Positions 19,938 to 47,712 of a DNA stretch of 64,000 nucleotides are shown piece by piece. Position numbers and translations under genes: made by a program. The notes beneath the pieces are model-generated. The model ran no database searches. It saw only the letters and a list, made by a program, of their open reading frames with translations, and had not been told where the DNA came from. This DNA comes from a virus (lineage: Duplodnaviria; Heunggongvirae; Uroviricota; Caudoviricetes): IMG/VR virus record IMGVR_UViG_3300032167_000010. One strand, given 5' to 3'. Position 1 is the first letter of the stretch. Each line of letters begins with the position of its first letter.

Positions 19938-20019
19938 TATCCATTATAATATTCTTAAAGATTTTTGAACAAATTAACAAAGCTATAGAAATTTTTTCTA
20001 AAGCTGGAGGTGATAAATA

Positions 20020-21888
20020 ATGTCAAGTGCAGGACTAAAGTATACCCTTAGCGGTAAAACATATGTATTGAGTAGTATAGGAACTTGTAAAGATACTAAC
20101 ATAGTTATCCCGGCCAAGCATCCAGATAATGGAAAAGCTATAACCAGCATAGGTAAAGAAGCATTTAAGGGCTGTACTTTTATTGAGAATATAAGCTTTG
20201 AGGATGATAGTGAATTAACATCTGTTGGTACATATGCGTTCACTGATTGCTCGTCACTCAAAAGCATAACAATACCAAAAAGTGTGAAAACTTTTAATAA
20301 CTATGCCTTTAAGGGCTGTACATCATTAGATGAAATAAAATATAAAGGCACAGTGTCTGAGTGGGCGGCAAAAATTAGCTTTTACAATCCACAAGCAAGC
20401 CCGTTTTGTAACCGTGATCCTAAAAAGAACAAAATTGAGCCCAGACTTTATGAATTTGATGAAAGCATTTCTGACTATATAGAAGTCACAGAAATAAATG
20501 AACATAATTTCACTGCTAGTAAGATCTCGGGTTATGCATTTTATAAATGTTACAGTCTAACAAGTGTAACAATACCAAACTGTGTGACAAACATTGGCAG
20601 AAGTGCTTTTTCTGGCTGCGAATTATTGGAAAACGTGAAAATAGATGGTGCGCCGACCGTTAGTGAAGGTATATTTTCATGTTGCTATAACTTAAAGTTT
20701 GTTACTATCAATAAAGGTCTAACCACTATAAGTAATAGTATGTTTTCTGACTGTCATAATCTACCTACTATAAACATTCCTGACAGTGTTACAAGTATAG
20801 GCAGTGAGGCGTTTAAGAATTGCTACATAGACTTAACCACTATAACCATTCCTGACAGTGTTACCAGTATAGGTAATAGAGCATTTTATGGATGTGGAGC
20901 ACTCATAGGTATTAGCTTTGGCAAAACCAGTGAGTTAACAAGTATAGGTGTTCAAGCGTTCTATAATTGCGACTCACTTACATCTATAACTATCCCAGAT
21001 AATGTAACAAGTATAGGTGATGATGCGTTCTCTGGCTGTATTAGTTTGACACATACATCGGAGACAGGATCAGGGGTATCCCGAAACTTAAAGTATATAG
21101 GTACTAGTAGTAACCCCTACTTATACTTAGTTGGTGTTATATTAAGTCAAACAAATCATATAACGTCTGCACAAATACATTATAAGTGTAGATATATAAA
21201 TAGTCAAACATTTAACAATTGTAGTTTATTAGCAAACATATATGTAGATGAAGATAATACAAATTATAAATCTATAGATGGTAATTTATATAGTATAGAT
21301 GGAACAACATTAATTACGTATGCAAGAGGTAAAAAAACTACATCATTTAGGATACCTAATACTGTAGAAAAAATAAATAATTTTGCATTTTGTAACTGTA
21401 TAAACTTAGCAAGTATAACAGTCCCTGATAGCGTAACGAGTATAGGCGAGTCAGCGTTCAGCGGTTGCAAGTCATTAATAAGTCTAATAATCCCAGATAG
21501 TGTGACAGGGATAAGTACTAATACCTTTATAAAATGTATATCATTAGAAAATATTGTAATAGGAAGCGGTATAGTAAGCATTGATAAGGACGCGTTTAAA
21601 GAGTGTGGCTTATTAACAAATATGGTATTACTAGGAGATACTCCGCCTACCTTAAGTGCAACACTGCCTAACAACATAAAATTATACTGTTATCCTGAAA
21701 ACTCAAATTCTTATAAAACGGCAACAAATTGGCAAGACTATTCAGATAACTTTATAGGAGATACTCTAAAAGTCACATTTGCGATTAATGCAGCAGTTCA
21801 AAAGAAACTATTTGAATCTAAAAAAAGCTTTAATGCTAGAATGCAAAGATTAGATGCTCAATTAGCTAGCCTCGAATCTACTAGATAA
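20020..21888 (+). CDS. BspA/TpLRR-family leucine-rich-repeat protein
   Basis: IPDSVTSIG repeats; N- and C-termini paralogous to 9458..12469. Confidence 0.9.
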   Translation: MSSAGLKYTLSGKTYVLSSIGTCKDTNIVIPAKHPDNGKAITSIGKEAFKGCTFIENISFEDDSELTSVGTYAFTDCSSLKSITIPKSVKTFNNYAFKGCTSLDEIKYKGTVSEWAAKISFYNPQASPFCNRDPKKNKIEPRLYEFDESISDYIEVTEINEHNFTASKISGYAFYKCYSLTSVTIPNCVTNIGRSAFSGCELLENVKIDGAPTVSEGIFSCCYNLKFVTINKGLTTISNSMFSDCHNLPTINIPDSVTSIGSEAFKNCYIDLTTITIPDSVTSIGNRAFYGCGALIGISFGKTSELTSIGVQAFYNCDSLTSITIPDNVTSIGDDAFSGCISLTHTSETGSGVSRNLKYIGTSSNPYLYLVGVILSQTNHITSAQIHYKCRYINSQTFNNCSLLANIYVDEDNTNYKSIDGNLYSIDGTTLITYARGKKTTSFRIPNTVEKINNFAFCNCINLASITVPDSVTSIGESAFSGCKSLISLIIPDSVTGISTNTFIKCISLENIVIGSGIVSIDKDAFKECGLLTNMVLLGDTPPTLSATLPNNIKLYCYPENSNSYKTATNWQDYSDNFIGDTLKVTFAINAAVQKKLFESKKSFNARMQRLDAQLASLESTR

Positions 21889-26854: not shown

Positions 26855-28768
26855 ATGGAAGATAAGATTAAAAATAAGTTAATAGAAGGTCTTCAGGACA
26901 ATAAAGAATTAAAAAATACTATAAATTTTGAAGGTACTGAAGAATATAACATTAATGCTGTAACTGCTGATGTCGCTAGATACACAAAGGCTGACTTAAT
27001 ATTAAAACCATCTTTAGGAGAAGGTATTAACCTTACTAATGACGAGAAGAATATCAGAAACGGTATATTTGACGGTAATGAAGATAGAGTTATAAATTAC
27101 GTGCCTTCTGATGGCGGTACTTTTACTGGTCCTGTACAGATTAATGTGAATAAGACATCTGTAGACGGTGTAGGTGTTAATGAAATTATTAACCGAGGCC
27201 AAATGGAAACTGTTATATCGCAGTTAGACGGTGCACCTCTATATACATGGGATGTGAGTGCAGGTTACAACGCGGTAGAGAACGATGACGAAGTGCCTTA
27301 TAAGTTAAATACAGTTATAGGAAGTATAGAAGACCTTCCAATTTTTGAGGCTTTTGCTAGTGGCGAAGCTCATAACAAATATGTAACACCGGATAGTTTT
27401 GATAATGCTTATATAATATATGGTAGTACATATGACGATGCTTATTTTAATCAAGCATATAATGATGTAAGAGATACTATAACAAAACTAGTATTTAAAG
27501 GAACTCTTAGTACCGAAGCTGACAGAGTAAGAATACGTGCTGGTGAATTTTATGCAGATGGGTATCAAGACGGCTCACCATATGGCTTTACAAATCTTGA
27601 AACTGTATATATTAATCCGGGAGCTTACTGGATAGATAATGGTGTTTTTAGGGGGTGTAGAAAGCTAACAACAGTAGACATTCCTGATAGTATTGAAAAG
27701 ATTGGTAAAAAGGCCTTTGAAGGCTGTACTAAACTAACTAATATTGTTCTTGGAAGCAATATAAAGGAAATACAATCAGAAGCATTTATAGGTTGTACAA
27801 GTCTTAAAAGTATAGCTATATGTAATAACGAGGTAACAATAGCTTCAAACGCTTTTTCTGGTTGTACTGCCTTAAAGAAAGTATATTTTAAAGGTACTCA
27901 AGCTGAGTGGAAAACACTTACAAGTGGTAATAGCCTGTTAAACAATCTAGAAGTTGTTACTATTAGTGATACAGCTTTCCCATTTTTATATATTTGTAAA
28001 ACCGACGAAAAGGATACATCACTTACTTCAAATAAGATGTTCTTAAAACTACCAAACGAACCTTTGGTAGAAATTTCTAAAGGCGCAGTTCGTTTAGAAC
28101 GTAGAGATAGTAAAACAAGCGGTAATGTAGACTACTTTACTTATGATGTTTTAGCTGCTGTTATTGCAGGTATAAACTCTAGAATAACTGCATTAGGCAG
28201 TACAGCTTTAGCACTTCCTGAAAAACTTACAGTACATGATGAGACGGGTAATACAGTAGTTCTAGATATACCAGTTAACGTTGTTTCTGATGAAGCAGAT
28301 ACACTTATAGTAAAAGAGGCTGTTGTACCAGATGTAGACGAATTACAAGGTCAGCTTACGAAAGTAACAGGTAGAGACAGATGTGTTACACCAATAGAAG
28401 AAACAATATCTATAGCTATAAAAGAGCCAGCGCTTGATGATAATGGCGATGTGTTGACAGATGAAGATGGTAATATAATTTATGATGAGACGAAGACCCG
28501 TTATGAAAATCATACTAAAGTAGTTGGTCATGATGTAACGTATACTGACCCCAGTGAATACACAGGTGATATAACATCTGTTTTACAGGCAAAAGCAGAT
28601 GAAGTCGGTAGAAATATTCAAACTGGCTATTATCAAAAAACACAAAATGAATTTACTAGCAGTTCTTCTGCTAATACTATTACAATATCAAGTGCAGATC
28701 CTACTGATTCAACGCCGGGGCAGATTGGTGATATAATGATTGTAATTAATACTGGAGATGGAGAGTAG
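26855..28768 (+). CDS. Structural protein with central BspA LRRs
   Basis: IPDSIEKIGKKAFEGCTKL repeats. Confidence 0.7.
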   Translation: MEDKIKNKLIEGLQDNKELKNTINFEGTEEYNINAVTADVARYTKADLILKPSLGEGINLTNDEKNIRNGIFDGNEDRVINYVPSDGGTFTGPVQINVNKTSVDGVGVNEIINRGQMETVISQLDGAPLYTWDVSAGYNAVENDDEVPYKLNTVIGSIEDLPIFEAFASGEAHNKYVTPDSFDNAYIIYGSTYDDAYFNQAYNDVRDTITKLVFKGTLSTEADRVRIRAGEFYADGYQDGSPYGFTNLETVYINPGAYWIDNGVFRGCRKLTTVDIPDSIEKIGKKAFEGCTKLTNIVLGSNIKEIQSEAFIGCTSLKSIAICNNEVTIASNAFSGCTALKKVYFKGTQAEWKTLTSGNSLLNNLEVVTISDTAFPFLYICKTDEKDTSLTSNKMFLKLPNEPLVEISKGAVRLERRDSKTSGNVDYFTYDVLAAVIAGINSRITALGSTALALPEKLTVHDETGNTVVLDIPVNVVSDEADTLIVKEAVVPDVDELQGQLTKVTGRDRCVTPIEETISIAIKEPALDDNGDVLTDEDGNIIYDETKTRYENHTKVVGHDVTYTDPSEYTGDITSVLQAKADEVGRNIQTGYYQKTQNEFTSSSSANTITISSADPTDSTPGQIGDIMIVINTGDGE

Positions 28769-30353: not shown

Positions 30354-30363
30354 TGTATAATAT
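30354..30363 (+). promoter_or_regulatory. TGTATWATAT extended -10-like promoter (representative copy)
   Basis: Copies at 29334, 30354, 32594, 35809, 38921, 41377, 43434, 44879 and 61420, all intergenic and upstream of non-structural units. Confidence 0.65.
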
Positions 30364-30393
30364 AATGTAAGCAACTTGCGCATAAGCTTACAT

Positions 30394-30450
30394 AGAGCCT
30401 ATACTTATTTCTAACGTAAATTTTGGGAATTTAAAAGTGGCAGTTAGGCC
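30394..30450 (+). ncRNA. Bulged-helix ncRNA family, copy 1 (57 nt)
   Basis: AGAGCCTA-T-ACT-TATTTCT ... AGT-TAGGCC. Confidence 0.7.
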
Positions 30451-30547
30451 AAATAAGATACTACGTTTAGCGGTGCCTTACTTTGGTTTAAGATCAAAAA
30501 AGACATCGCTAATTTTATTTAAAATTATTTTTTCAGAGGTATAAAAT

Positions 30548-32530
30548 ATGACTAATATTAAAAACATTCTTATTTCTCGTCGCATGCTTTTAGCTGATGG
30601 TTTTTCAGTAAGTAATTCTAAAATTGAAAATGCATACCTTAATGCTTTTTTACTTTCAAATTTTGGTATTGTTGTAAATAAGCCGGAACTTTTAACTAAA
30701 GAAATGGTTAAAGACATATCAGATGTTTATAAACTTAATGTTCCTAAATCTTATTTTGCAAATCCACAGGATACTAAGTTTTATACTGCTGAAGAACTTT
30801 TAATAGAACAATGTGTTTCATATTTCCTTGCTTACGGTGCGGAAGAATCACATGTTCACGTTTTTGATAAAAAACTTCCTGATTATCCTGTAGGAAACGA
30901 AATTAAGCTCCGCGAGTTTAAAATCTTAAATCCGGAAGAAGCGATTATAGAACTTGTTGCAATCACAAAAGCTTATGCTGAATATAAACGTCCTTGGAGT
31001 TTAGATGAACAAAATGAATTTTTAGCTCTTTACTATAATGGACAAGGTTATTATGACTTAAATACTATGCCACTTCTTTGCGGAGATAATGCTGTCTTTA
31101 TGTTAGATAAAGATGTAAACTTTGCACAGTTTTTATTTAAGAAAGATGTTGTGAAACTTTCTGTTGCAAAAGTAGGTGAATGTAAAGACCTCGTACTTGA
31201 TTCTGATACTAAAAAGCTTATTAAAGCAATTATTCCACTTGTTAAGGATTGTCCTATGTCTAAGAAACAAGCTAAGTTCTTTAATAAACTTGTTCAAATT
31301 ACTGGTGCAAAGGCAAAGAAAGTAGATAATAAACAATCACCTAATAAACTTGCCATTGAAAAAATTAAAGCAGGTGATATTATTGGTGCAGCTGACATTT
31401 TTGCTAAGAATGGTTCTCTTCTTGAGCGTAATCTTAAGTTTCTTCTTTCACGTGCAAATCCTATCGAAGCAGCAGTAATTCTTAGTATGCTCTCAAATAA
31501 AAATCCTACAGTGCTTTATCAACTTATATCTACTATTAATGCGGATAATGAAGAAGCTCGTACATTCTCTTTCTTTGCTAAAAATAAGGTTAAAACTCAC
31601 GCAGAGACTGAGTACGAAGCTCGTTGGAGAAAGTCTCGTTTGAATGACGCTACTAAGAAACTTGTCCATGATATTTGCTTCGAAAAAATTGCGGAACATT
31701 ATAAAGCCTCAGAAAAACTTGGTAAGGTATATATTGATTCTAAGTTCTATCGTGTAGCAATGCCAGTTAATACTTCTGCATCGGGTAAGGGTATAGACGT
31801 TCCTACGACTGGCACAAGACTTCCTATTACTGGTACTAAGATTCGTTCTTTTGTACACTGGGAGAATGCTTTCGATATTGACTCTTCTGTAATTCTTGAA
31901 AAAGAAGATGGTAGATTAGATTCTATAAACTATAGTAGTTATTATTCTCGTAATTATCAAGGTGTAGCTCGTTTTTCTGGAGATATTACAGGTTCTAAAG
32001 GTACTGAATACTTTGATTTAGATTTAGAATCATTAAAAAATCAAGGTATTAAAAGAGTGATATTTACTTTCCATGGTTTTTGTTCAACTCTTAATGAAGG
32101 TGAAATTTACTGTGGTTATCAAAACAAAGAGGACTTCAATACTAAAGCTTGGGACCCTAAAAATATTGAGCTTAAGATTCATGTTAAAGGTGATAAACGC
32201 GCTTATATAGCTTTTGCCGTGGACCTTGAAACTATGGAAATTGTAGTTCTTAATTTAATGCGTGACGACGACTCTCGTGTTGTTTCTTCTAAAGATTTTG
32301 AAGCTATTAAAGCTTTTATAGACCCTGCAAAACTTGAACTTAATATGGGTTTAATTGCTGAATGGCGTGGTGAAGTTGTAGAAACTCCTGAAGAAGCCGA
32401 CGTTGTTTTTGCTGATGACTATATTTCTAATGTTGAAAATCTTCCAGTTTCAGAAGATGGTTCAGCTAGAGCGCAGACTGTAATTCGTTCGTTTGATGTT
32501 GAGAAGCTTAACGCAATCGCAAATGTTTAA
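30548..32530 (+). CDS. Helical-domain + C-terminal TerD-like domain protein (candidate RNA-binding partner)
   Basis: 660 aa; FVHW..DIDSS..FSGDITG..GTEYFDLD resembles the TerD fold; recalled similarity to the MXAN_6230/SCO0854-like family is unverified. Confidence 0.55.
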   Translation: MTNIKNILISRRMLLADGFSVSNSKIENAYLNAFLLSNFGIVVNKPELLTKEMVKDISDVYKLNVPKSYFANPQDTKFYTAEELLIEQCVSYFLAYGAEESHVHVFDKKLPDYPVGNEIKLREFKILNPEEAIIELVAITKAYAEYKRPWSLDEQNEFLALYYNGQGYYDLNTMPLLCGDNAVFMLDKDVNFAQFLFKKDVVKLSVAKVGECKDLVLDSDTKKLIKAIIPLVKDCPMSKKQAKFFNKLVQITGAKAKKVDNKQSPNKLAIEKIKAGDIIGAADIFAKNGSLLERNLKFLLSRANPIEAAVILSMLSNKNPTVLYQLISTINADNEEARTFSFFAKNKVKTHAETEYEARWRKSRLNDATKKLVHDICFEKIAEHYKASEKLGKVYIDSKFYRVAMPVNTSASGKGIDVPTTGTRLPITGTKIRSFVHWENAFDIDSSVILEKEDGRLDSINYSSYYSRNYQGVARFSGDITGSKGTEYFDLDLESLKNQGIKRVIFTFHGFCSTLNEGEIYCGYQNKEDFNTKAWDPKNIELKIHVKGDKRAYIAFAVDLETMEIVVLNLMRDDDSRVVSSKDFEAIKAFIDPAKLELNMGLIAEWRGEVVETPEEADVVFADDYISNVENLPVSEDGSARAQTVIRSFDVEKLNAIANV

Positions 32531-32608
32531 AAAAAATTAATAAATTATTAAATTATTAATAAAAAATATTTGCTAAATTTTATAGAATAATATTGTATAA
32601 TATAACAT

Positions 32609-32722
32609 AGAGCCAATGCTTATTTCTTTAGCCTTTTAAGCCGTGTGTCGTAGGTTCGAATCCTACCGTCAGCCTTCGGGTGGCGTAGCTCAGCGGTAGA
32701 GCAACGTAAATATAGCTTGGCC
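32609..32722 (+). ncRNA. Bulged-helix ncRNA copy 2 carrying a circularly permuted tRNA-Lys(UUU)-like domain (YrlA-like)
   Basis: Order is anticodon loop CTTTTAA, T arm, acceptor 3' strand, TTCG loop, acceptor 5' strand, D arm; closed by GCCAA/TTGGC. Confidence 0.85.
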
Positions 32723-32728
32723 AAAAAT

Positions 32729-32816
32729 CGGGGTGTGCTGAAACTGGCGAGACAGGGTGGACTTAAAATCCACTACATTAGAAACGTTGGTGGTTCGAAT
32801 CCACTCACCCCGACCA
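32729..32816 (+). tRNA. trnL: tRNA-Leu(TAA)
   Basis: Cloverleaf, GTGGA-CTTAAAA-TCCAC, long variable arm, CCA. Confidence 0.92.
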
Positions 32817-32823
32817 GTAATTT

Positions 32824-32899
32824 GGGCCTCTAGTTCAGCGGTTAGAGCCCCGGTCTCATAAACCGGTAGTCCACAGTTCGAATCTGTGGAGGCCCACCA
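32824..32899 (+). tRNA. tRNA-CAT (probably Ile2, possibly Met)
   Basis: CCGGT-CTCATAA-ACCGG, CCA. Confidence 0.88.
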
Positions 32900-33446
32900 G
32901 TAAATAAACAACTAAATAGGTGCTTTATTGCGGATAGACATATCTATGGTAACTTTTGATGAGTTGATGATTGTGTATTTTAAGAGTTCGAGAACAATGA
33001 TAAAGTTGAATGGTTTTTGAAAACAGCCTATTTTAGTCAATTAAATATCCCGTGCCTTCTCACGTCTATTAAGTTAGAATGACATGTGCCAGAGCTAACC
33101 TAGTCGGGGACACTAAAAGTGGAAGTCCTATACCCGTGGTAAGTCGCCTCTAATCAATCCGTGGAAATTAGAAACCGTAAGAAGTTAGAAAAGGGCTAGT
33201 CATAAAGCTGAATCTGGTGGCTAGATAAAAGGATATTTAATTTGTATAAATTCGTCTCGTAGTTCGTCGAGTTTAAATAACCGAACGTGTGCAATATATA
33301 CAGAGTCAATTGACCGAGTAGTGAAGCACGCACCTCTACCAATGAGGCGGTCGTACAACATAGCACAATCCAATGAGAAAAGGACAGAGGCTCTTAACTG
33401 TAGCCAGAAGATGTGAGAGTTGCTTCCTCACCCGCTAAAATTATTT

Positions 33447-33534
33447 GGAGAGATGTCAGAGTGGCCTAATGTGCACGCTTGGAAAGCGTGTGTACTGAAA
33501 GGTACCACAGGTTCGAATCCTGTTCTCTCCGCCA
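33447..33534 (+). tRNA. trnS: tRNA-Ser(GGA)
   Basis: CACGC-TTGGAAA-GCGTG, long variable arm, GCCA. Confidence 0.93.
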
Positions 33535-34084
33535 GTGCGTTTTTGTTATATTTTTCGTAATAAAAAAAATAAAATATAGCTTAAATTGATAGGAACTAAT
33601 GCACGAATATCTAATGGAGTCATTTTAGGAATGATGTTGATATAGTTAGGGTAAGCATTAAAGTACTTCTTATTGTGTAGGTTAACATGCAGATAAGCGT
33701 TATGGCCCTACCGATACGTTAAATCGGGGAACAGTGTTTGTGGGGATACTATATTTACTGAGATTAATGATCTTGTCTAGAGTTCAAGTATTTTAAGAGC
33801 GCGACACTTAAGCTCTTCTGTACTCAGCAGTTTATAAAAGAACGAACAAAAGAGTAACAACAACTTAATAAGTAAGTATAAATCAATTGAGGTGTCCATC
33901 AAGCAGAGGCTTGTTTGGAGGACAGAGCTACCCGCGACTTGGATGAAATAGAGTCTGAAATCAAGCGGCCAAGAAGGTCTTGAAAAAGATATGGTAGCAG
34001 GAAGTGGCGAGGCGATAGCAGGTCAACTCAAGAGTACCTAGGTTATTAGTAAATTGAGGAAGCTGAAAATTAATTGTTGATTAT

Positions 34085-34162
34085 GCGGGATTGATGTTTT
34101 AATGGCTAGCATTTCTGCCTTCCAAGCAGATCGTGAGGGTTCGAGTCCCTTATCCCGTTCCA
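34085..34162 (+). tRNA. trnG: tRNA-Gly(TCC)
   Basis: TCTGC-CTTCCAA-GCAGA, TCCA. Confidence 0.92.
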
Positions 34163-34510
34163 GTATATCTTGGATAAAATTCTAGATACCAAGAAACTTC
34201 GAATATATTGAATAAGAAGGCTGAGTCCGTCGGTACAAGGCAATATGAGAGAATGATCAACGGACTACTCTCAAAATTATTTTTTTGGGCTGGTCATAAG
34301 ATCTAGGTCCACCAATACGGGAGTTTTCCTGTTATTTAGTTGTTAGCTTAGTAAGTCGTAGGCCGGACAAATACGTGTAGCCCCCGGTTATTGCGAGAGT
34401 CGAACAGCGCAACGGGGTGGTTGGCAACAACTAGTCGAAAGATGTAGATAAGTTCATTACACGTGTTTATTTATAATACTCGATTCTCTCAAAGGAAACT
34501 AGAGAGACGT

Positions 34511-34586
<76 letters not shown>

Positions 34587-34874
34587 ATTTGGGTAGAAGG
34601 TAGTCGCTTGAAATACAGTTGAGCCTCTAAAATACGCTCTTATATACGGCGAGGAATAGTATATAATATAATGTAAAGTTAAATAAGGTGCCACGAAGCT
34701 TTATAAATAATCTTTGCTGTGTTAATAAACGGGAAACTGTTTTACTCGAGGTGAGCTTATAAAAGGGTCAGTAGCTGTGGTAAATGGAACGAGATAAACA
34801 GCCTTATATTTATGTAAAATATTTCTAAGGAGGTAATCATTATGCTATAACTAAATTTATAAGGAGTTATCGTA

Positions 34875-35234
34875 ATGAAACCAAAACACAAATATTTTAG
34901 AAATCAGCGCTATAAGAACTCGCTTGAAAGAAAGTATAACAACGGATATAACGAAAGTTATCCAAGTAATATTGTTTTCTTAACAAAAGAACAAGACCCA
35001 CGTGCTAAAAGGGAAGCCGCTTGGTGGTGGAGCTATGACTTTAAGAAGAAAACACATTACAAATATTATGCTAGACCTGAAGTTCCTTATACTGTTATGG
35101 AAGAACACTATAAACCCGATAGAACTAAGCATTTTTTCAAGAAACATTCAAATAGAGCTGTAAGACGTACAAAAGACGCTTATAACGGCGGAAGCTGTAA
35201 AAAAGTTTTTGATTTATGGTGGACATTGTTTTAA
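34875..35234 (+). CDS. Basic hypothetical protein within the tRNA island
   Basis: 119 aa, AAGGAG RBS, followed by a hairpin. Confidence 0.7.
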   Translation: MKPKHKYFRNQRYKNSLERKYNNGYNESYPSNIVFLTKEQDPRAKREAAWWWSYDFKKKTHYKYYARPEVPYTVMEEHYKPDRTKHFFKKHSNRAVRRTKDAYNGGSCKKVFDLWWTLF

Positions 35235-35263
35235 GTCTTGGCTAGTTTTAACTAGCCTTATTT

Positions 35264-35339
35264 AGGGGTGTCGTATAGTTGGTTAGTACACAAGACTTTG
35301 ACTCTTGCAGGGTTAGTTCGAGTCTAGCCGCCCCTGCCA
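35264..35339 (+). tRNA. trnQ: tRNA-Gln(TTG)
   Basis: CAAGA-CTTTGAC-TCTTG, GCCA. Confidence 0.9.
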
Positions 35340-35428
35340 GATGCTGAGTATGACTATCCTTCAACAGAAAACAGTACGTCATTCTATCACAATATGAATG
35401 AAGCACAAACAAAAGAAGGGATTTATAT

Positions 35429-35549
35429 CACGACTTAGTTCATAGGTAAGAGCACCCAAATCCCAGGGAAGAGAGAAGCGTTGAAGCTGATTACTAGCTA
35501 GAATTGGCAGAGCTGAAGAGGAGCATCGTCGTAGGTGCAGTCGTGTCAA
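35429..35549 (+). ncRNA. Free-standing ~120-nt tRNA-like RNA, paralogue of the tRNA-Thr insert
   Basis: CACGACT/AGTCGTG acceptor-like stem, D arm, CCC-AAATCCCA-GGG hairpin, T-like arm. Confidence 0.7.
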
Positions 35550-35618
35550 TTATTAAATTAATAATTTATTAAAAAATTATTAGCTAAATTAATTAGATAA
35601 AGTTAAGGAGTATATAAC

Positions 35619-35714
35619 ATGAAAAAGATTATTTTTGCCAAAACATTAAAAAATAACAATAGTAGTGTTATGCCATTTTATCGTAAAGCCAGAGACCCAG
35701 TATTCCAGTGTTAA
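35619..35714 (+). CDS. Putative 31-aa peptide MKKIIFAKTLKNNNSSVMPFYRKARDPVFQC
   Basis: AAGGAG RBS, downstream of a GCTAAATTA motif. Confidence 0.4.
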   Translation: MKKIIFAKTLKNNNSSVMPFYRKARDPVFQC

Positions 35715-35825
35715 GAATTTTTATAGTAGATAAAGTATCTTAGCGCTTGGGATTATAAAAAATTCTGAGCGCTTTTTATTTTTATTATTAAAATTTACAT
35801 GAGAGTATTGTATAATATATTATAA

Positions 35826-35959
35826 GCGCCTGTAGCTCAGTTGGCAGAGCACGTGACTTGTTTGAGTAGCATAAGTAATGCGATATTATGTGAGTTCAAA
35901 TCTTACCTCAAGCACCATTAATCACGGTGTCCCGAGTTCGAATCTCGGCAGGCGCACCA
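35826..35959 (+). tRNA. trnK: tRNA-Lys(TTT) interrupted at 34/35 by a 58-nt mini-tRNA (35860-35917)
   Basis: Exons of 34 nt and 42 nt give 76 nt with CGTGA-CTT|TTAA-TCACG. Confidence 0.9.
35860..35917 (+). ncRNA. Anticodon-arm-less mini-tRNA nested in tRNA-Lys
   Basis: GTTTGAG/CTCAAGC stem, D arm GCAT-AAGTA-ATGC, T arm GTGAG-TTCAAAT-CTTAC, ACCA. Confidence 0.88.
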
Positions 35960-36209
35960 AAGAGGGCTATTTCCAAGCCCTGCTGGTTTGCTCGGCCGTT
36001 ATTGGTATTTAATGGAAATAAGTATTAATAGATAAAGTACGATAATCTTTATCCCTGGTTATGCAGGTTAATATAGAGGTAAGCGAGTGGTTTCCTGCGC
36101 ATTCCTACATATCAAATTCGGCGAGGAGATGGTTTGGTTTCTACTAACCAAATAACTTAGTAGACTATCTAGAGTAATATTCCGGGGATAGTTAAATAGT
36201 AGAATATAT

Positions 36210-36318
36210 GTGAGAGTAGCCAAGTAGTAAGGCCACCCGACGGGGTTACAAAGTGAGGTGCAAGTCCCACTGAAAGCATAGGGCGTACGGATCGTTGGTG
36301 CAAATCCAACCTCTCACA
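36210..36318 (+). ncRNA. tRNA-like RNA with two T-loop hairpins and no CCA
   Basis: GTGAGAG/CTCTCAC stem, D arm, TGCAAGT and TGCAAAT loops. Confidence 0.6.
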
Positions 36319-36324
36319 ATTTAT

Positions 36325-36399
36325 AGGGGATTGGTGTTAATGGCAGCATAGGGGTCTCCAAAACCTTTGGTTAGAGTTCAAATCTTTAATCCCCTGCCA
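36325..36399 (+). tRNA. trnW: tRNA-Trp(CCA)
   Basis: GGGGT-CTCCAAA-ACCTT, GCCA. Confidence 0.9.
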
Positions 36400-36549
36400 G
36401 GGCAGTTATAATGTGGTGAAGAATGGTCTGCCGAAGCAAAATCCGTAGGGTCATGAGGTATGGATACTCCTCGATTAATATAAGTATGCAAATTGAAAAT
36501 AGGCCTTAAGTAAATAAGTGAAAATATTAATAAAATTATCCATATTTTT

Positions 36550-36625
36550 GCAGGATTAGCTCAGTTGGGAGAGCAATTGTCTTACAAGCAATGGGTCGGC
36601 GGTTCGAGCCCGTCATTCTGTACCA
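36550..36625 (+). tRNA. trnV: tRNA-Val(TAC)
   Basis: ATTGT-CTTACAA-GCAAT, ACCA. Confidence 0.92.
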
Positions 36626-36883
36626 GTTGAGTTCGGATATAGCGAACTTTTGAAATGCTTAAGCATACTAGTAAATACTTAATCAAAGTAAATTTAGTAG
36701 TGGAATGTAATGTGGAAAAAGCTTTGACTCCGATACCATTTCACTCAACACCATTCAGTTCTGGGGTAAGTTAGTTGAACCGGTTATACTAACAACCATA
36801 TGTGCGTAGAATATGGATTTAACCTGACAGGCGGATATTCCTGTAGATGCAGAAAGGCTGCGAACTGAGACCATTTTAATTAC

Positions 36884-37000
36884 ATGTCAGTGGCGGAAAA
36901 ATCCTGCAGACCAAAGACAGTAGGTGGATAGACGTAACCCTGTTAAGGGTGAAGAGTCTTGCAAGCTCTTATAAAGGTTCAAATCCTTTCTGACATACCA
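36884..37000 (+). ncRNA. Atypical type-II tRNA-like RNA with D-loop insertion and 6-nt anticodon loop
   Basis: ATGTCAG/CTGACAT-ACCA, T arm AAAGG-TTCAAAT-CCTTT, ACCC-TGTTAA-GGGT. Confidence 0.7.
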
Positions 37001-37116
37001 AGGGCAAACAGTTATCACTTTCATTAGAGCCCTAGATAAAAGTTCCTGAAAGTGAAAGTTTTTCTTTTTCACAGTAGCTTGGTTTTATGATGACTTAAAA
37101 AACACAAACTATGATT

Positions 37117-37192
37117 CTAGGTATAGCACAATTGGATGTGCATCGCCCTTCTAAGGCGACGGTTGTAGGTTCGAGCCCTGCTACCTAGACCA
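37117..37192 (+). tRNA. trnR: tRNA-Arg(TCT)
   Basis: TCGCC-CTTCTAA-GGCGA, ACCA. Confidence 0.93.
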
Positions 37193-37199
37193 AAAGTAT

Positions 37200-37277
37200 G
37201 CCTCGGTAGCTCAGTTCGGTAAGAGCACTAGACTGAAAATCTAGACGTCGGCGGTTCAAATCCACCCTGAGGCACCA
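37200..37277 (+). tRNA. trnF: tRNA-Phe(GAA)
   Basis: CTAGA-CTGAAAA-TCTAG, ACCA. Confidence 0.93.
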
Positions 37278-37411
37278 AAAGCGGAAAAAGTACAATTCTG
37301 CTCAGCAACGCGTAGTATAGGTAGAGGTAGAATTACGCCAAAACGAGGTCATATGCCGTGGAGGAAACCCTGACACCGACGAGACTGGTTCATCAGGAGC
37401 GTTGTGAATAT

Positions 37412-37484
37412 GCCAGATGTGCTAGGAACACAAGGAGGTCTCATACACCACCTGTGCTTGGAGCGTAACCAAGATCTGGTACCA
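37412..37484 (+). ncRNA. Degenerate CAT-anticodon tRNA-like RNA
   Basis: GCCAGAT/ATCTGGT-ACCA, CTCATAC loop, non-canonical T loop AGCGTAA. Confidence 0.6.
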
Positions 37485-37570
37485 ATAGTAAATATAGGTT
37501 CGAGCCCTGTATTGGGGAGCCTTAAGTGGAACAACTCCCCGATTAGTTTAATTGGACTAAAACTTACTAT
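37485..37570 (+). ncRNA. Second circularly permuted tRNA-like RNA, open at the anticodon end
   Basis: ATAGTAA/TTACTAT closing stem, T arm, ATTGGGGAG/CTCCCCGAT stem, D arm. Confidence 0.75.
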
Positions 37571-38012
37571 GCACGAAACCGCGGGAAGTGTGGTAACCGG
37601 CGGTCTAAAAATGAAGGATCACCAAACCTTATACATGACAACGCTGAAATCGCCTCTATGATGTATAAGTGAGTCCAATAGCCTTGACAGTAAGACTGGG
37701 GTTGAATGTTACCTTACATATTACGATATGGTAAGATACTAAAAGCTGTCTGAAATACCTCTGGCAAGAGATTTAGTAGTGACTCTATAACATAAACTAC
37801 TTGGTAGCGTATGTGCGGAAGGCAAGGCAGTGTTTTTACATTGTTCCTTGGATACTATAAGAAATTATAGTAGTACAGGCTATGTTGAATAGTCTTAAAT
37901 AAAAACCCGTGAATGTCAGTAAATGTCCCGAAAGTATCAACAGAGAAGCTGACTAATCTCGTTCTAGGTGTAGGATAGGGACGAGCAGGTTTACGGGGCT
38001 CCTGCTCAATAT

Positions 38013-38087
38013 GGGGAATGTAGTGTAAAGGTAGCACCTCAGTTTGTGGCACTGATAGTTAGAGTTCGATCCTCTACGTTCCCACCA
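38013..38087 (+). tRNA. trnH: tRNA-His(GTG) with encoded G-1 and A73
   Basis: TCAGT-TTGTGGC-ACTGA; 3' end CGTTCCC-A-CCA. Confidence 0.9.
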
Positions 38088-38104
38088 GTTAAGTTATATT
38101 ATAT

Positions 38105-38190
38105 GGGTAGGTAGCGAAGAGGTTAAACGCTGCGGGCTGTAAACCCGCCCCTGTTTAGGTTCGCTGGTTCGAATCCAGCCCTGCCCACCA
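38105..38190 (+). tRNA. trnY: tRNA-Tyr(GTA)
   Basis: GCGGG-CTGTAAA-CCCGC, ACCA. Confidence 0.93.
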
Positions 38191-38387
38191 ATACGACTAG
38201 ACTCATAAGTCGTTCAATAGAGTACAAAGCCTTGGTTGCGGGAGTCGCAATTACACAAGGATGCAGAGACTCGCCCTTATAAAGGGAATTAAATAAATTG
38301 AGTATGGGCATGATTAGGGACTTTCCACCCATGAAGATAAAGCGGAAAGGATAACGTTATGACGCCTGGGAATAGACCAGGATGCAT

Positions 38388-38464
38388 ACGCTCTTAGCTC
38401 AATTGGATAGAGCTTTGCGCTACGGACGCAACGGTTAGGGGTTCGAGTCCCTTAGAGCGTGCCA
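38388..38464 (+). tRNA. trnR: tRNA-Arg(ACG)
   Basis: TTGCG-CTACGGA-CGCAA, GCCA. Confidence 0.93.
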
Positions 38465-38672
38465 AGCCTTCTTACAGAGATAACCATCACGTTGGCACTG
38501 CTGAAGAATAAAACCAGGAGATTTTGGCGCTCCTGTTTGGATGTTGAAACTTCCTATTGTTAATCTGTTTGAGACTCAAAACAGAGCGTTTACTCTGGTA
38601 ATCGTTGGAAAACCTATGAGGTAGTATAACTGACTCAGTGTTATATGACTGCAGGGAATAGTTCTGCACTAT

Positions 38673-38750
38673 CGATGTGTAGTTCAGTTGGTTTAGAGCA
38701 CCTGTCTGATACACAGGAAGTCGGTGGTTCGAACCCACCCACATCGACCA
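38673..38750 (+). tRNA. trnI: tRNA-Ile(GAT)
   Basis: CCTGT-CTGATAC-ACAGG, ACCA. Confidence 0.88.
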
Positions 38751-38762
38751 AAAATTTAATAT

Positions 38763-38838
38763 CTGGGTGTGGCGCAGTTGGTAGCGCGCTTGAATGGGGT
38801 TCAAGAGGTCGGGAGTTCAAGTCTCTTCACTCAGACCA
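38763..38838 (+). tRNA. trnP: tRNA-Pro(GGG)
   Basis: CTTGA-ATGGGGT-TCAAG, ACCA. Confidence 0.9.
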
Positions 38839-38937
38839 TAAAAATATTATACTTTATTAAATTTGTTTTTAAATTATATGCTAAATTAATAGTACCCTGA
38901 TTAAAAATTAAATAATTTATTGTATAATATAATATCT

Positions 38938-39031
38938 GGAGGGGTACTCAAGTTGGTGAAGAGGACGCACTGCTAACGCGTTAGGGCGGTGATGAGCCGT
39001 CGCGAGAGTTCGAGTCTCTCCCCCTCCGCCA
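38938..39031 (+). tRNA. trnS: tRNA-Ser(GCT)
   Basis: ACGCA-CTGCTAA-CGCGT, long variable arm, GCCA. Confidence 0.92.
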
Positions 39032-39066
39032 ATTACTATATATTAAAATTTATTTTGGGGCTATTA

Positions 39067-39378
39067 ATGTATACTATAATTTATAAAGGTAAGTCAATCT
39101 CTTACAACGAAAATAATATTCATATAAAAAATTCATATAAAGTTAAAAATAGCGCCGAAATGGAAGAAGCTTTAAGATATGTTGTAGCCAGAGCTGCTAA
39201 ACGCGGAATTACCTATAAACGCAGTATGGCTAGTTGGATTAGAGAATGGAAAACACATAATTTTTTATGTGGTATGAAATACAAAGTAGCTCAAACTTCT
39301 TCAGTAGACCTTAATGAGAATGAGAGTTTATTTAGACGTTTAAGTTATTTTATATTAGCTCTATTTTATAGAGGCTAA
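39067..39378 (+). CDS. Hypothetical protein (start moved to the ATG downstream of tRNA-Ser)
   Basis: MYTIIYKG..., 103 aa; the longer ORF call overlaps the tRNA. Confidence 0.6.
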   Translation: MYTIIYKGKSISYNENNIHIKNSYKVKNSAEMEEALRYVVARAAKRGITYKRSMASWIREWKTHNFLCGMKYKVAQTSSVDLNENESLFRRLSYFILALFYRG

Positions 39379-39385
39379 ACCTTAC

Positions 39386-39462
39386 GGGCCCATATATCAG
39401 CTGGCTAGATGGTTTCCCTTGCAAGGAAAAGGTCGTCGGTTCGAATCCGACTGGGTCCACCA
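39386..39462 (+). tRNA. trnA: tRNA-Ala(TGC)
   Basis: G3:U70 pair, TTTCC-CTTGCAA-GGAAA, ACCA. Confidence 0.93.
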
Positions 39463-39587
39463 CTAGTAGATAAGTAACAAATATCAGCACTACAACAAGC
39501 CTACGTAGGTTAGTATAGCGTATTAATCTATGTATGAAATTAAATGCTAGATGTGTAGCGAGTGCAAGACTTTATTGTACGTTTTAT

Positions 39588-39670
39588 GGGGGTGTGGTGA
39601 AATTGGCAGACACGCCAGACTTAGGATCTGGTGCGTAAGCGTGCAGGTTCAACTCCTGTCACCCCCACCA
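39588..39670 (+). tRNA. trnL: tRNA-Leu(TAG)
   Basis: CCAGA-CTTAGGA-TCTGG, ACCA. Confidence 0.93.
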
Positions 39671-39679
39671 AAATAATAT

Positions 39680-39754
39680 GGTCCTTTAGTATATCGGTTA
39701 GTATAGCGGACTGTCACTTCGCAGAGAGGAGTTCAACTCTCCTAAGGACCGCCA
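39680..39754 (+). tRNA. trnD: tRNA-Asp(GTC)
   Basis: GCGGA-CTGTCAC-TTCGC, GCCA. Confidence 0.92.
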
Positions 39755-39918
39755 ATAAACACAATATAACGAAGAATATTGAGGTTAATGTATTCTAAGG
39801 TAACTGATAGGGGTAACCCACCAAAGAGCTAATAGGATTTTTCTAATGCTGAAGTTACATAGGTATTAGACTTTGTTGACCTAACTCTACCTAAGGTCAT
39901 TAGTATTGTGTTATATTT

Positions 39919-39993
39919 TGGGGAGTCGCCAAGCGGTAAGGCCCTGGATTCTGACTCCAGTACTCGTAGGTTCGAATCCTGCTTCCCCAGCCA
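39919..39993 (+). tRNA. trnQ: tRNA-Gln(CTG)
   Basis: CTGGA-TTCTGAC-TCCAG, GCCA. Confidence 0.93.
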
Positions 39994-40054
39994 TAGTATG
40001 AGGTTTCGTGGGAAGTGCCCCGAGTAAAACTAGCAACAAATTACCTCACTTTAT

Positions 40055-40131
40055 GCCCAGTTGGAGAAGAGGCTTAACTCACCACCCTTTCACGGTGGCA
40101 TTCGCGTGTTCGAATCACGTACTGGGTACCA
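40055..40131 (+). tRNA. trnE: tRNA-Glu(TTC)
   Basis: CCACC-CTTTCAC-GGTGG, ACCA. Confidence 0.92.
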
Positions 40132-40208
40132 GGAAGTTGTTGGTTGTATAATACTTTAAACCTTCACGGCTTGACCTACGCCGTACAGTAAGTAGGTTAT
40201 AAACAGAT

Positions 40209-40283
40209 TGGTAGGTAGCCTAGCGGATAGGCAGCAGACTGTTAATCTGCCTTAGGTGGGTTCAACTCCCTCCCTACCAGCCA
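40209..40283 (+). tRNA. trnN: tRNA-Asn(GTT)
   Basis: GCAGA-CTGTTAA-TCTGC, GCCA. Confidence 0.9.
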
Positions 40284-40344
40284 CTAAATTAAAACTTATA
40301 TCTCTAAGACAATAAAATATTTTATATAAAGGAGATTGTGTATT

Positions 40345-40566
40345 ATGTTAAAACACAAATATCTATTCTTAGAGATCAGTGCAAATGATGATCAAGTATT
40401 GTCAAAAAGAATCCTTAAATCAAGAGAATCAGGTATGAGATTAATGGAAAAAGAACTAACTAGTCTTGATGCTGAAGTAAGAGAGTTGATTTATAGAGAT
40501 GCTAGAAAACACTTGCAAGAATTTATTTGCACTAATGGATTAGTATTCATTATAAATAGGATCTAA
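40345..40566 (+). CDS. Hypothetical protein
   Basis: AAGGAG RBS before the ATG at 40345; 73 aa. Confidence 0.55.
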   Translation: MLKHKYLFLEISANDDQVLSKRILKSRESGMRLMEKELTSLDAEVRELIYRDARKHLQEFICTNGLVFIINRI

Positions 40567-40580
40567 TCCAATCTCTATAT

Positions 40581-40642
40581 TATCAGTTAGTGTACGGAGC
40601 ACTCCAATGGCAGAGTAAGTTCAATTCTTACAATGATAACCA
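40581..40642 (+). ncRNA. Free-standing anticodon-arm-less mini-tRNA
   Basis: TATCAGT/AATGATA-ACCA, D arm GTGT-ACGGA-GCAC, T arm GTAAG-TTCAATT-CTTAC. Confidence 0.7.
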
Positions 40643-40771
40643 AGCGCTTATTTGAGATAGTCACTAGGACAATAAGAACTGTTGCATAAAGACTATTATG
40701 GTGAACAGTGGTGTAAGCTAAGACAGAGACTTACATAGGTGAGTACCAGATAATCAAATCTCACCTTACCT

Positions 40772-40846
40772 GGCCTCATGGTCAAGCGGTTAAGACGCCG
40801 CCCTCTCACGGCGGAATCAGGAGTTCGATTCTCCTTGGGGCTACCA
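40772..40846 (+). tRNA. trnE: tRNA-Glu(CTC)
   Basis: CCGCC-CTCTCAC-GGCGG, ACCA. Confidence 0.92.
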
Positions 40847-40878
40847 TAAAAACAGTAAATAATTTAAATATATAAATT

Positions 40879-40935
40879 AGAGCCTGAACTTATTTCTGAG
40901 GATAAAAATAAATATGGATTTAACTTAGTCAGGCC
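40879..40935 (+). ncRNA. Bulged-helix ncRNA family, copy 3 (57 nt)
   Basis: AGAGCCTG-A-ACT-TATTTCT ... AGT-CAGGCC. Confidence 0.7.
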
Positions 40936-40951
40936 ATTATAAAAATAACTT

Positions 40952-41027
40952 AGAGCTCATACTTATTTCTATTGAAGATACATATACTCCTGGACGTATG
41001 TGCCAGGCACTAAAGATTAGTTGAGCC
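40952..41027 (+). ncRNA. Bulged-helix ncRNA family, copy 4 (76 nt)
   Basis: AGAGCTCA-T-ACT-TATTTCT ... AGT-TGAGCC. Confidence 0.7.
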
Positions 41028-41047
41028 TGTTATTTTTAATTCAATAT

Positions 41048-41123
41048 TGCAGAGTAGAGAAGTGGTCATCTCGCCGTCCTCATAAGTCGGAAATCATTGG
41101 TTCGAATCCAATCTTTGCACCCA
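41048..41123 (+). tRNA. trnM: tRNA-Met(CAT), initiator-like D arm, subtype uncertain
   Basis: CCGTC-CTCATAA-GTCGG, T arm, CCA. Confidence 0.82.
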
Positions 41124-41127: not shown

Positions 41128-41322
41128 GCTTCAGTAGCTCAACTGGCAGAGCAGCTGACTTCGTCGATTAGTTTAATTGGGAAAACAACCGAATCCCAGG
41201 TAAAAGACAACCTTTGATAACAATTACGATCAAATTGTTTAGGTTAAGATAAACAAGTTCAAATCTTGTATCGGCGTCCAGTAATCAGCAGGTTGATGGT
41301 TCAATTCCGTTCTGAAGCTCCA
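41128..41322 (+). tRNA. trnT: tRNA-Thr(TGT) interrupted at 34/35 by a 119-nt tRNA-like RNA (41162-41280)
   Basis: Exons of 34 nt and 42 nt give 76 nt with GCTGA-CTT|GTAA-TCAGC; acceptor GCTTCAG/CTGAAGC-TCCA. Confidence 0.9.
41162..41280 (+). ncRNA. tRNA-like RNA nested in tRNA-Thr
   Basis: CGTCGAT/ATCGGCG-TCCA, D arm GTTT..AAAC, T arm ACAAG-TTCAAAT-CTTGT. Confidence 0.87.
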
Positions 41323-44874: not shown

Positions 44875-44919
44875 ATATTGTATTATATAATATAAAAATA
44901 ATTATTGAGGTTAAATAAT

Positions 44920-46341
44920 ATGAGTTATTATGCTATTGTAACTGCTTTAAAAAACGTGCGTAAGCACCCTAATGCAGACAGACTTCAACTTGCCTCAGTA
45001 TTTGGTAATACTATTTGTGTTGACTTAACTTATACTGATGGCCAACTTGGTGTATATTTTCCAACAGGTGGACAGCTTTCAGTAGCTTTTGCTGAGGCAA
45101 ATAACTTGCTTCGTAAAAAAGATGCCGAAGGAAATAATATCGGTGGATATATGGACCCAGATAAAAGAAATGTAGCGGCTATTAAACTAAGAGGTGAGAA
45201 GTCTGATGGGCTTTTCCTTCCTTTGAATAGTCTCGAAACTTTTGGTGATATTTCTACTTTGAAGGCTGGCGACCGAATCGACGTGTTTAATGGTACAGAG
45301 ATTTGCACCAAGTACATACCTAAAATTAATATTAGACGTGGCAGTTTTTCTGAAGGAAATCGTACTAGAAAAACTAAGGCGCCTATTGCTCCTTTATTTG
45401 CAGAACACGCAGACACTGAACAGCTTGCCTATAACTTGGGTATGTTTAAGGTCGGTGATGAATTAGAGTTTACTCTAAAAATGCACGGGACTTCTCAACG
45501 TACCGGTCATCTTAAAGTTTTGACTGGTTATAAGAGAACTTTTTTTGATAAGCTTTTTAAAAGACCTGGCACACCTATTTATGATTGGGGCTATGTTTCT
45601 GGTACCCGTCGTGTAGTTCTTGATACTTTTGATGGTGGTTTCTACGGCTCAAATGAATTCAGAGAACAACATCATAATGCTTTTGTTGGAAAGCTTTGGA
45701 AGGGTGAAACTGTTTATTACGAAGTAGTTGGTTTTACTCATACTGGTGCGCCTATTATGGGTAATGGTAATAACGAAAAACTTGGTAAAGACTTTGTAAA
45801 GCAGTATGGTAAAGAAACTGTATTTAGCTACGGCTGTAATCCAACTGGTGAGTGCATTATGTGTGGTGAAGATGAACTTAGCGCTTTTAAAGTTCCAGTT
45901 GATGTTCCAATATCAGATACTTATGTTTACCGTATGACAATGACTAATGAAGATGGTGAAATTGTTGAGTATACGCCAGACTTTATAAGGTATCGTTGTG
46001 AACAAATGGGCGTTAAATGTGTTCCTGTTTTCGGTAAAGCTACAATTAGTGAAGATAGACTACATTTTGTAACACAAGACGGTTATGACCATGACTATTT
46101 AATTGGTGACGGTACTATTGGTGATATGGTAGTAAAGTGTGCTGAAGACTTTTATGCTGGACCTGACCCTGTGGGTAAGACACACACTAGAGAAGGTGTT
46201 GTTGTTCGTATTACTAATAGACCTAAATTCGCAGCAGTAAAACATAAAAACTTTGAATTTAAGGTCTTAGAAGGTATCATTTCTGAAAAGCTTACAGAAT
46301 CAACCACAGAAATAGCAGAAGATGTTCTTGCGGAAATGTAA
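44920..46341 (+). CDS. ATP-dependent RNA ligase (DRB0094/Rnl2-like) with N-terminal OB-fold tRNA-binding-like domain
   Basis: N-terminal HPNADRL..IKLRGEKSDG; nucleotidyltransferase motifs TLKMHGTS, YYEVVG, REGVVVR, KHKNFEF. Confidence 0.85.
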   Translation: MSYYAIVTALKNVRKHPNADRLQLASVFGNTICVDLTYTDGQLGVYFPTGGQLSVAFAEANNLLRKKDAEGNNIGGYMDPDKRNVAAIKLRGEKSDGLFLPLNSLETFGDISTLKAGDRIDVFNGTEICTKYIPKINIRRGSFSEGNRTRKTKAPIAPLFAEHADTEQLAYNLGMFKVGDELEFTLKMHGTSQRTGHLKVLTGYKRTFFDKLFKRPGTPIYDWGYVSGTRRVVLDTFDGGFYGSNEFREQHHNAFVGKLWKGETVYYEVVGFTHTGAPIMGNGNNEKLGKDFVKQYGKETVFSYGCNPTGECIMCGEDELSAFKVPVDVPISDTYVYRMTMTNEDGEIVEYTPDFIRYRCEQMGVKCVPVFGKATISEDRLHFVTQDGYDHDYLIGDGTIGDMVVKCAEDFYAGPDPVGKTHTREGVVVRITNRPKFAAVKHKNFEFKVLEGIISEKLTESTTEIAEDVLAEM

Positions 46342-46353
46342 TAAGAGGTTTAT

Positions 46354-47401: not shown

Positions 47402-47420
47402 AATTAAGAGGTGTTTAAAA

Positions 47421-47702: not shown

Positions 47703-47712
47703 GGTTAATTTA

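Follow-up and report, generated by a model that had tools for sequence, protein, structure and literature searches.

A TerD-fold protein and its neighbouring handle RNAs as a candidate divergent Ro60/Y-RNA-type ribonucleoprotein of large phages and Clostridia

Ro60/Y-RNA particles are conserved from bacteria to humans, and their function in bacteria is poorly understood. To our knowledge, RNAs of the YrlA type have until now been linked with genes that encode a TROVE domain. Described systems that pair Ro60 (Rsr) with Y RNAs include the rsr-yrlBA-rtcBA locus of Salmonella, Rsr and Yrn1 of D. radiodurans, and the Ro60 of the Thermus phage phiLo (PMC4201824, PMC12135203). The Y RNAs tether Ro60 to partners, and the 5' GNCGAAN0-1G motif of YrlA is thought to contact Rsr (PMC4201824). 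Here, we describe a locus in a 64,000-nucleotide stretch of the Caudoviricetes record IMGVR_UViG_3300032167_000010 (the window), in which a gene for a 660-amino-acid (aa) protein lies among small RNAs that share a terminal stem structure, referred to as the handle. A reading of the sequence alone had proposed this protein as the ribonucleoprotein partner of the RNAs in a Ro/Y-like system with a different domain architecture. Judged from sequence and predicted structure, we find it somewhat more probable than the alternatives taken together that the 660-aa protein and the handle RNAs form a divergent, non-canonical ribonucleoprotein of the Ro60/Y-RNA type. The gene is as follows:

30548-32530, + strand: gene of the 660-aa protein, with more than 500 homologues in a 90%-identity cluster search and an AlphaFold2 model.

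Like Ro60/Rsr, the 660-aa protein has two domains, a helical repeat followed by a second domain, and its gene has a small RNA or several as neighbours, often including at least one whose long stem bears a permuted tRNA-like module. Both systems occur in bacteria and phages, and the protein is remotely similar in sequence to TROVE in the C-terminal half of that domain. In contrast to Ro60/Rsr, the Pfam TROVE domain is undetected, a TerD fold stands where Ro60 has its von Willebrand factor A (vWA) domain with its MIDAS, and the RNAs lie in tandem upstream of the gene. The handle (AGCUA-helix-RYU-UAYUUC in bacteria; a GAGCC type with a bulged U in phage) takes the place of the GNCGAAN0-1G motif of YrlA. 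The protein-RNA pair is outside Pfam TROVE and Rfam YrlA as these are currently defined. The literature searched, in which coverage was incomplete, held no account of TerD with TROVE or a Y RNA and none of the handle, and the same was true of SCO0854/MXAN_6230.

Four handle RNAs were located in the window, two of them directly bracketing the gene and two at the far end of a 25-gene tRNA array that spans window positions 32729-41123. These RNAs and their associated elements are:

30354-30363, + strand: promoter-like motif TGTATAATAT before RNA copy 1, conserved in six related phage loci.
30393-30453, + strand: handle RNA copy 1, short type, with helix I GCCUA/UAGGC, a bulged U and helix II ACU/AGU, then UAUUUCU; invariant in six relatives.
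30470-30520, + strand: handle-like hairpin GCGGUG-CCU-UACUUUGG ... AGA-CAUCGC followed by a U-rich tract, from sequence and minimum free energy fold; architecture kept in relatives.
32594-32603, + strand: promoter-like motif TGTATAATAT before RNA copy 2, from motif search and relatives.
32609-32729, + strand: handle RNA copy 2, long type, GCCAA-U-GCU / AGC-UUGGC with a permuted tRNA-like module inside, from Rfam YrlA; conserved in the relatives L002-L005.
40878-40938, + strand: handle RNA copy 3, short type, GCCUG-A-ACU / AGU-CAGGC, situated at the distal end of the tRNA array.
40951-41030, + strand: handle RNA copy 4, short type, GCUCA-U-ACU / AGU-UGAGC, from motif and covariation.

The sequence-only reading had placed RNA copies 98 nucleotides (nt) upstream and 79 nt downstream of the gene, each behind its own promoter motif, and both distances are exact, with the helix of copy 1 ending at 30449, 98 nt from the ATG, and copy 2 (GAGCC at 32610) beginning 79 nt past the stop codon and abutting a tRNA-Leu at 32729. 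The motif TGTATAATAT, present before each of these two copies as claimed, occurs six times in the window, where 0.6 occurrences are expected. An RNA 5' motif, CATAGAGCCWATRCTTATTTCT, is found at 30391, 32606 and 40949, with none expected by chance, and a further copy lies at 40880. A generic sigma-70 and terminator scan picked up neither the TGTATAATAT sites nor the 30470-30520 hairpin. This hairpin, which separates copy 1 from the gene, has the appearance of a terminator or attenuator and may be a protein-responsive terminator; it is also similar to the handles at L016, a distant bacterial locus.

The phage handle consists of a 5-bp helix I, a bulged U (or A/C), a helix II of the form RCU:AGY, and then UAUUUCU. 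Compensatory changes are seen in five of its eight pairs across 12 short-type phage copies, and the helix covariation score of 0.396 compares with 0.159 for shuffled copies, with none of 500 shuffles scoring as high; sliding the partner strand abolishes the pairing. Within the handle of copy 2 lie a T arm, a capped acceptor stem and a D arm, and this arrangement on a long terminal stem matches the YrlA model, with conserved T- and D-loop sequences. Against Rfam YrlA (RF02553), copy 2 scores 35.7 bits (E 1.8e-5), the gathering score being 69. Handle RNAs neighbour the gene in all six close phage relatives, and two related complete phage genomes contain nine and seven handle copies (none for a reversed-pattern control), all on the strand of the gene and clustered just upstream of it, just downstream of it, and at the distal end of the tRNA array.

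The same linkage is found in bacteria. According to the sequence-only reading, homologues without RNAs beside them would count against the proposal; the homologues do have such RNAs, and the proposal withstood this test. In distant metagenomic homologues with 26-35% protein identity, each of six loci has a handle RNA or a pair of them immediately before the gene, at least three have a copy with the tRNA-like module, and one gives a YrlA match at 38.6 bits. A scan of species-representative genomes confirmed at least 268 matching contig stretches, and the bacterial locus analyses below used the best 80 of these 268, mostly from Lachnospiraceae and other Clostridia of gut and rumen, cultured isolates included. 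The protein is encoded by several hundred species of such Clostridia. Carriers of the family among the cultured rumen isolates include Eubacterium ruminantium FB3002 and the Lachnospiraceae bacteria C6A11, AC2029 and AC2031. The Clostridial homologues with handle RNAs have 26-50% protein identity, and one to three tandem handle RNAs lie directly upstream of the gene in about 67 of the 74 loci with enough upstream sequence, the last handle ending approximately 20-90 nt before the start codon. A T-loop-containing RNA copy is present in 39 bacterial loci, and YrlA-like matches of 32-48 bits were found upstream of the gene in seven of ten loci scanned, the best score among relatives being 48.2 bits, under the 69-bit threshold. 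The bacterial handle is without the bulge and has an extra conserved internal loop (5' AGCUA, 3' RAUAUC).

Searching for the motif AGCUR-N5-NYU-UAYUUY, defined on sequence only, on both strands of the 749 kb of these 80 loci yielded 138 occurrences, of which 133 lie no more than 500 nt upstream of the gene and on its strand, placing 96% of the occurrences in the 5% of the sequence that makes up this upstream region. A full 8-bp complementary partner accompanies 117 of the 133 (14.3 expected), with 60 distinct helix-I sequences. In five whole bacterial genomes, handle copies are found essentially only at the gene locus. Across the 80 loci there is no conserved neighbouring protein gene, the largest cluster comprising eight loci.

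Several observations on individual bacterial loci stand apart from this pattern. In Lachnospiraceae bacterium AC2029, an extra match to the handle motif (G005:C1:2361815-2361833) lies approximately 23 kb from the locus and is either a detached copy or a chance match. Hairpins with an anticodon-loop-like CUGUUAA are present at L053:1359-1418 and L060:1359-1416 and similarly at L061, L070 and L094 (CUGUCAA or CUGUAAA by eye). The idea that the short-type RNAs are general mimics of the anticodon stem-loop was dropped, as the CUGUUAA-type 7-nt loop occurs in few loci only.

One explanation of this arrangement is incidental adjacency, in which a stress or calcium-binding protein of the TerD type would have nothing to do with RNA and the RNAs would be tRNA-like genes in their own right. 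No RNA binding is known for TerD proteins, and the window copies do lie beside a 25-gene tRNA array, both of which would fit such an explanation. The linkage of gene and RNA is nevertheless kept over 26-80% protein identity, in phages and in bacteria and outside tRNA arrays too, and the concentration of the motif upstream of the gene likewise speaks against coincidence. Incidental adjacency is already disfavoured, and we regard it as very improbable.

The protein itself falls outside the domain models in common use. The 660-aa protein (P0001) and 40 diverse relatives gave no Pfam, PHROG or PDB sequence match, PADLOC had no match for the protein or its family, and the Pfam TerD model (PF02342) did not match the protein or 40 family members at E<=10. 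The family comprises 1053 clusters at 50% identity (E<=0.001). A tblastn search against cultured-phage records returned only a partial match to the TerD region in Rhodococcus phage Weasels2, and feature-based and shape-based searches of ESM Atlas recovered nothing beyond the protein's own family. An AlphaFold2 model built on a 40-sequence alignment was confident (pLDDT 91.5, pTM 0.91) and depicts a helical N-terminal domain followed by a TerD-fold C-terminal domain. Two segments of this model are considered here:

31277-31738, + strand: residues 244-397, TROVE-like segment and most basic part of the helical domain, from hhalign with the family hidden Markov model (HMM).
31823-32308, + strand: residues 426-587, TerD-fold beta-sandwich, from structural alignment and Foldseek.

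In the model, the C-terminal domain has the TerD fold, with residues 426-587 aligning to 2qz7_B over 145 residues (VIA-align Z 14.3, rmsd 2.2 A) and to 2kxt with Z 11.5, and Foldseek matches to TerD structures at E 4e-5 (2kxt) to 7e-4 with probability 1.00. The TerD-like C-terminus proposed from the sequence alone is thereby borne out, as is an architecture unlike that of Ro60, the TerD fold replacing vWA. A basic N-terminal region of about 400 aa had also been proposed; residues 1-405 do have a pI of 8.96, and this basicity comes from residues 241-405 (pI 9.75), residues 1-240 having a pI of 5.6. Residues D443, D445, S477-G478-D479, G485, E487 and D490 of the TerD domain are invariant across the family and fall where, as we presume, TerD carries its calcium-binding motifs.

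The beta-sandwich is the same as in the TerD family (2kxt, 2qz7, 3ibz). Unlike in that family, the TerD fold of the 660-aa protein is a C-terminal domain linked to small RNAs, without a ter operon context or a Pfam TerD match. A further likeness was found in the NCBIfam model NF041916 (the MXAN_6230/SCO0854 RING-domain family), which matches 40 of 40 diverse members at profile positions of approximately 397-701 of 842 (best E 5.9e-33; P0001 2.4e-20), corresponding to the TerD domain together with the last part of the helical domain. The family lies outside NF041916 proper, with scores of about 72 bits against a cut-off of 600 bits, and differs from it in that the RING-bearing N-terminal part of the profile is unmatched.

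The nature of the protein bears on a second explanation, that of a type III toxin-antitoxin-like or defence module, in which the upstream tandem RNAs would counteract a harmful protein or control it, the likeness to Ro60 being superficial. With type III (ToxIN-like) systems the loci share their layout of a promoter, one to three tandem structured RNAs, sometimes a terminator, and then the protein gene. The spread of the family is sporadic, with one carrier in 300 sampled genomes of the class, and some loci adjoin genes of mobile or defence type (a type IV secretion system (T4SS) coupling protein, a TIR protein). In contrast to such systems, the RNAs are diverged tRNA-like units rather than identical repeats, and the folds recovered were TerD and the helical repeat, with no nuclease or known toxin fold: among the structural matches returned there was no ToxN/AbiEii-type endoribonuclease fold, an absence from lists that is not proof, and PADLOC was silent. 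A lytic-looking large phage, moreover, keeps the gene inside its tRNA array. We consider a toxin-antitoxin or defence module improbable. The neighbours in question are a TIR/MORN protein gene and a T4SS coupling-protein gene, which adjoin some bacterial homologues (L015:6784-7995, L016:588-2306) and hint at mobile or defence-island contexts in some genomes.

A relationship of the helical domain to TROVE is the link that would tie the protein to Ro60. In order to compare alignment with alignment, the canonical TROVE genes of Clostridia genomes plus relatives served as the TROVE reference. With hhalign, residues 244-397 align to positions 150-293 of Clostridial Rsr over approximately 141 columns (P 5e-4 to 3e-3), and the scores of 34.0-37.8 lie about 5 standard deviations above a null of 17.7±3.3 (maximum 27.2) from 60 block-shuffled TROVE alignments. 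Four motifs are collinear with TROVE in this alignment: LLHHIHYKPK on LVHPKPK (HxKPK), LLRNL on LLRNL, FxF on FRF, and a GK-strand that forms the opening of the second domain. R294, invariant in the family, aligns with the invariant arginine of the RNL motif of TROVE. When the family HMM was used without filtering, 19 TROVE proteins outranked all shuffled and unrelated decoys, every one of them aligned at the same region. In a structural comparison that bears on the ring-shaped HEAT-like toroid of Ro60, Ro60 chains of three organisms were among the top matches from approximately 48,000 representative chains and had by far the longest alignments, of 195-318 residues (1yvp_A, Z 5.9, 318 aligned; 2nvo_A, Z 5.4, 215; 9l5y_B, Z 6.2, 195), at Z values that are in the chance range for helical repeats. 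The sequence similarity is weak but recurs reproducibly at residues 244-397, and we infer a probable remote homology to TROVE for the C-terminal half of the helical domain. The Ro60 analogue suggested by the sequence-only reading gains support from the RNA linkage, and in its helical domain it would be better described as a probable homologue.

The remainder of the protein departs from Ro60, with no C-terminal vWA/MIDAS domain and the TerD fold there instead. No canonical TROVE gene (PF05731) was found in the two related phage genomes and five bacterial genomes searched. Sampling of 300 genomes of the class gave TROVE in 4 of 301 and the 660-aa family in 1 of 300, and since both are rare, no inference on a complementary distribution is drawn.

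Expression of the RNA region was observed in rumen RNA libraries. For the locus of E. ruminantium FB3002, four rumen metatranscriptome studies supplied contigs of 159-216 nt that are 99-100% identical and fall wholly within positions 1248-1463, which contain the three tandem RNAs; the gene starts at 1501, and coverage of the coding sequence amounts to a single 32-nt partial match of one rumen contig. This accumulation would fit stable small RNAs in large excess over the mRNA at this locus.

These contigs also bear on a third explanation, that the upstream RNAs are only cis-regulatory leaders of the protein gene, acting as attenuators or in a riboswitch-like manner, with no stable ribonucleoprotein. 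A leader would account for bacterial handles that lie only directly upstream, on the same strand and shortly before the start codon, and for the order of elements in the phage, where copy 1 and then the handle-like hairpin with its U tract precede the ribosome-binding site. It would not account for seven to nine copies per phage genome, some with their own promoter motif and situated downstream of the gene or, at a distance of approximately 8-12 kb, where the tRNA array ends, and the complete tRNA-like module borne by many copies would be needless in a leader. The placement of the metatranscriptome contigs on the RNA region, with the coding sequence all but uncovered, likewise argues against it. 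We judge a purely regulatory leader unlikely. This explanation and the toxin-antitoxin or defence module each fit fewer of the facts than a Ro/Y-like ribonucleoprotein does.

A number of results weigh against the Ro/Y-like ribonucleoprotein as well. Binding of the RNAs by the 660-aa protein is a prediction, and the bacterial RNAs are strictly cis-linked, which would also suit a purely regulatory leader. The handle RNAs beside the homologues are of one family, and the handle is unlike the canonical Rsr-binding motif: GNCGAAN0-1G (PMC4201824) is absent from the handle RNAs, and the equivalent helix covaries freely, with 60 distinct 5-mers. The handle RNAs also score under the Rfam YrlA gathering threshold of 69 bits. 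On the protein side, the hhalign probability to TROVE is only 10-31%, the reverse search with a TROVE HMM on the family scored barely above shuffled sequences, and the Pfam TROVE model (PF05731) gave no match in 40 family members even at E<=10. Structural Z values of 5-6 to Ro60 can be reached by helical repeats by chance. In the proposed check with AlphaFold and Foldseek against Ro60 and TerD, Foldseek matched TerD; Foldseek with the N-terminal domain alone gave no match at E<=0.001, and ESM Atlas showed no TROVE match. Finally, the metatranscriptome contigs define neither transcript ends nor strand.

The genomic setting is that of a phage. The window is AT-rich (approximately 34% GC), with coding nearly all on the + strand, and includes lysis and tail-type genes (amidase, endolysin-like, CHAP, BspA-type leucine-rich repeat (LRR) proteins) in addition to the tRNA array. 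After the array, at window 44905-48429, lie genes for an RNA-ligase-like protein (weak Pfam match), a Thg1-like protein and a calcineurin-like phosphoesterase, so that RNA-repair-type genes are found approximately 12-15 kb downstream of the gene of the 660-aa protein in the same window. This gene content shows that the window is part of a large phage. The nearest IMG/VR relatives are genomes of 220-233 kb rated 96-100% complete, and in the 90%-identity cluster search the protein occurs on contigs as long as 444 kb. About 25 kb separates the Thg1-like gene from the protein gene in related phages, and RtcB was not found in the two related phage genomes searched; because of this, there is no tight RNA-repair operon. 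As further observations on the window, three large BspA-type LRR_5 proteins (17442-21888 and 26855-28768) flank the amidase, endolysin-like domain and CHAP genes, an LRR_5 protein also adjoins the bacterial homologue at locus L015, and two Rfam tRNA matches listed within the tRNA array are weak or over-long (35860-35914 and 41162-41277; 34.6 and 32.4 bits).

For the Ro/Y-like ribonucleoprotein, a working scheme can be proposed. The TROVE-derived segment is predicted to bind the handle, most likely through the invariant UAYUUC on a helix of arbitrary sequence, and the TerD beta-sandwich would take the place of the vWA domain of Ro60. The variable RNA module, whether a tRNA mimic or a short hairpin, would provide a second interaction surface, as in Y RNAs (PMC4201824). 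Since the bacterial RNAs form a tandem series immediately before the gene, the gene-proximal handle may in addition give feedback control. The phage layout differs in having its copies, four in the window and seven to nine in related genomes, spread around the gene and the tRNA array. The analogy to Ro60/Y, together with a phage context of a tRNA array and RNA ligase, Thg1-like and phosphoesterase genes, points to RNA or tRNA surveillance, or a tRNA-directed conflict, during stress or infection as the most likely role.

More tentatively, and with rather less confidence than we place in the ribonucleoprotein itself, these loci could represent a second, unrecognised class of Ro/Y-type ribonucleoprotein in gut and rumen Clostridia and their large phages. 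In such a class, a TROVE-derived domain would be coupled to a ligand- or calcium-sensing TerD domain, interchangeable tRNA-mimic and hairpin modules would be mounted on a common handle, and in a tRNA-directed conflict of phage with host the particle might be a sensor, a decoy or a scaffold. If the Ro/Y-like ribonucleoprotein is real, tRNA-mimicking Y-like RNAs would also partner a protein that standard domain searches have missed, and the TerD fold, whose biochemical role is unclear, would gain a concrete RNA-linked context. With cultured carriers at hand and an RNA region visible in rumen metatranscriptomes, binding and function are directly testable.

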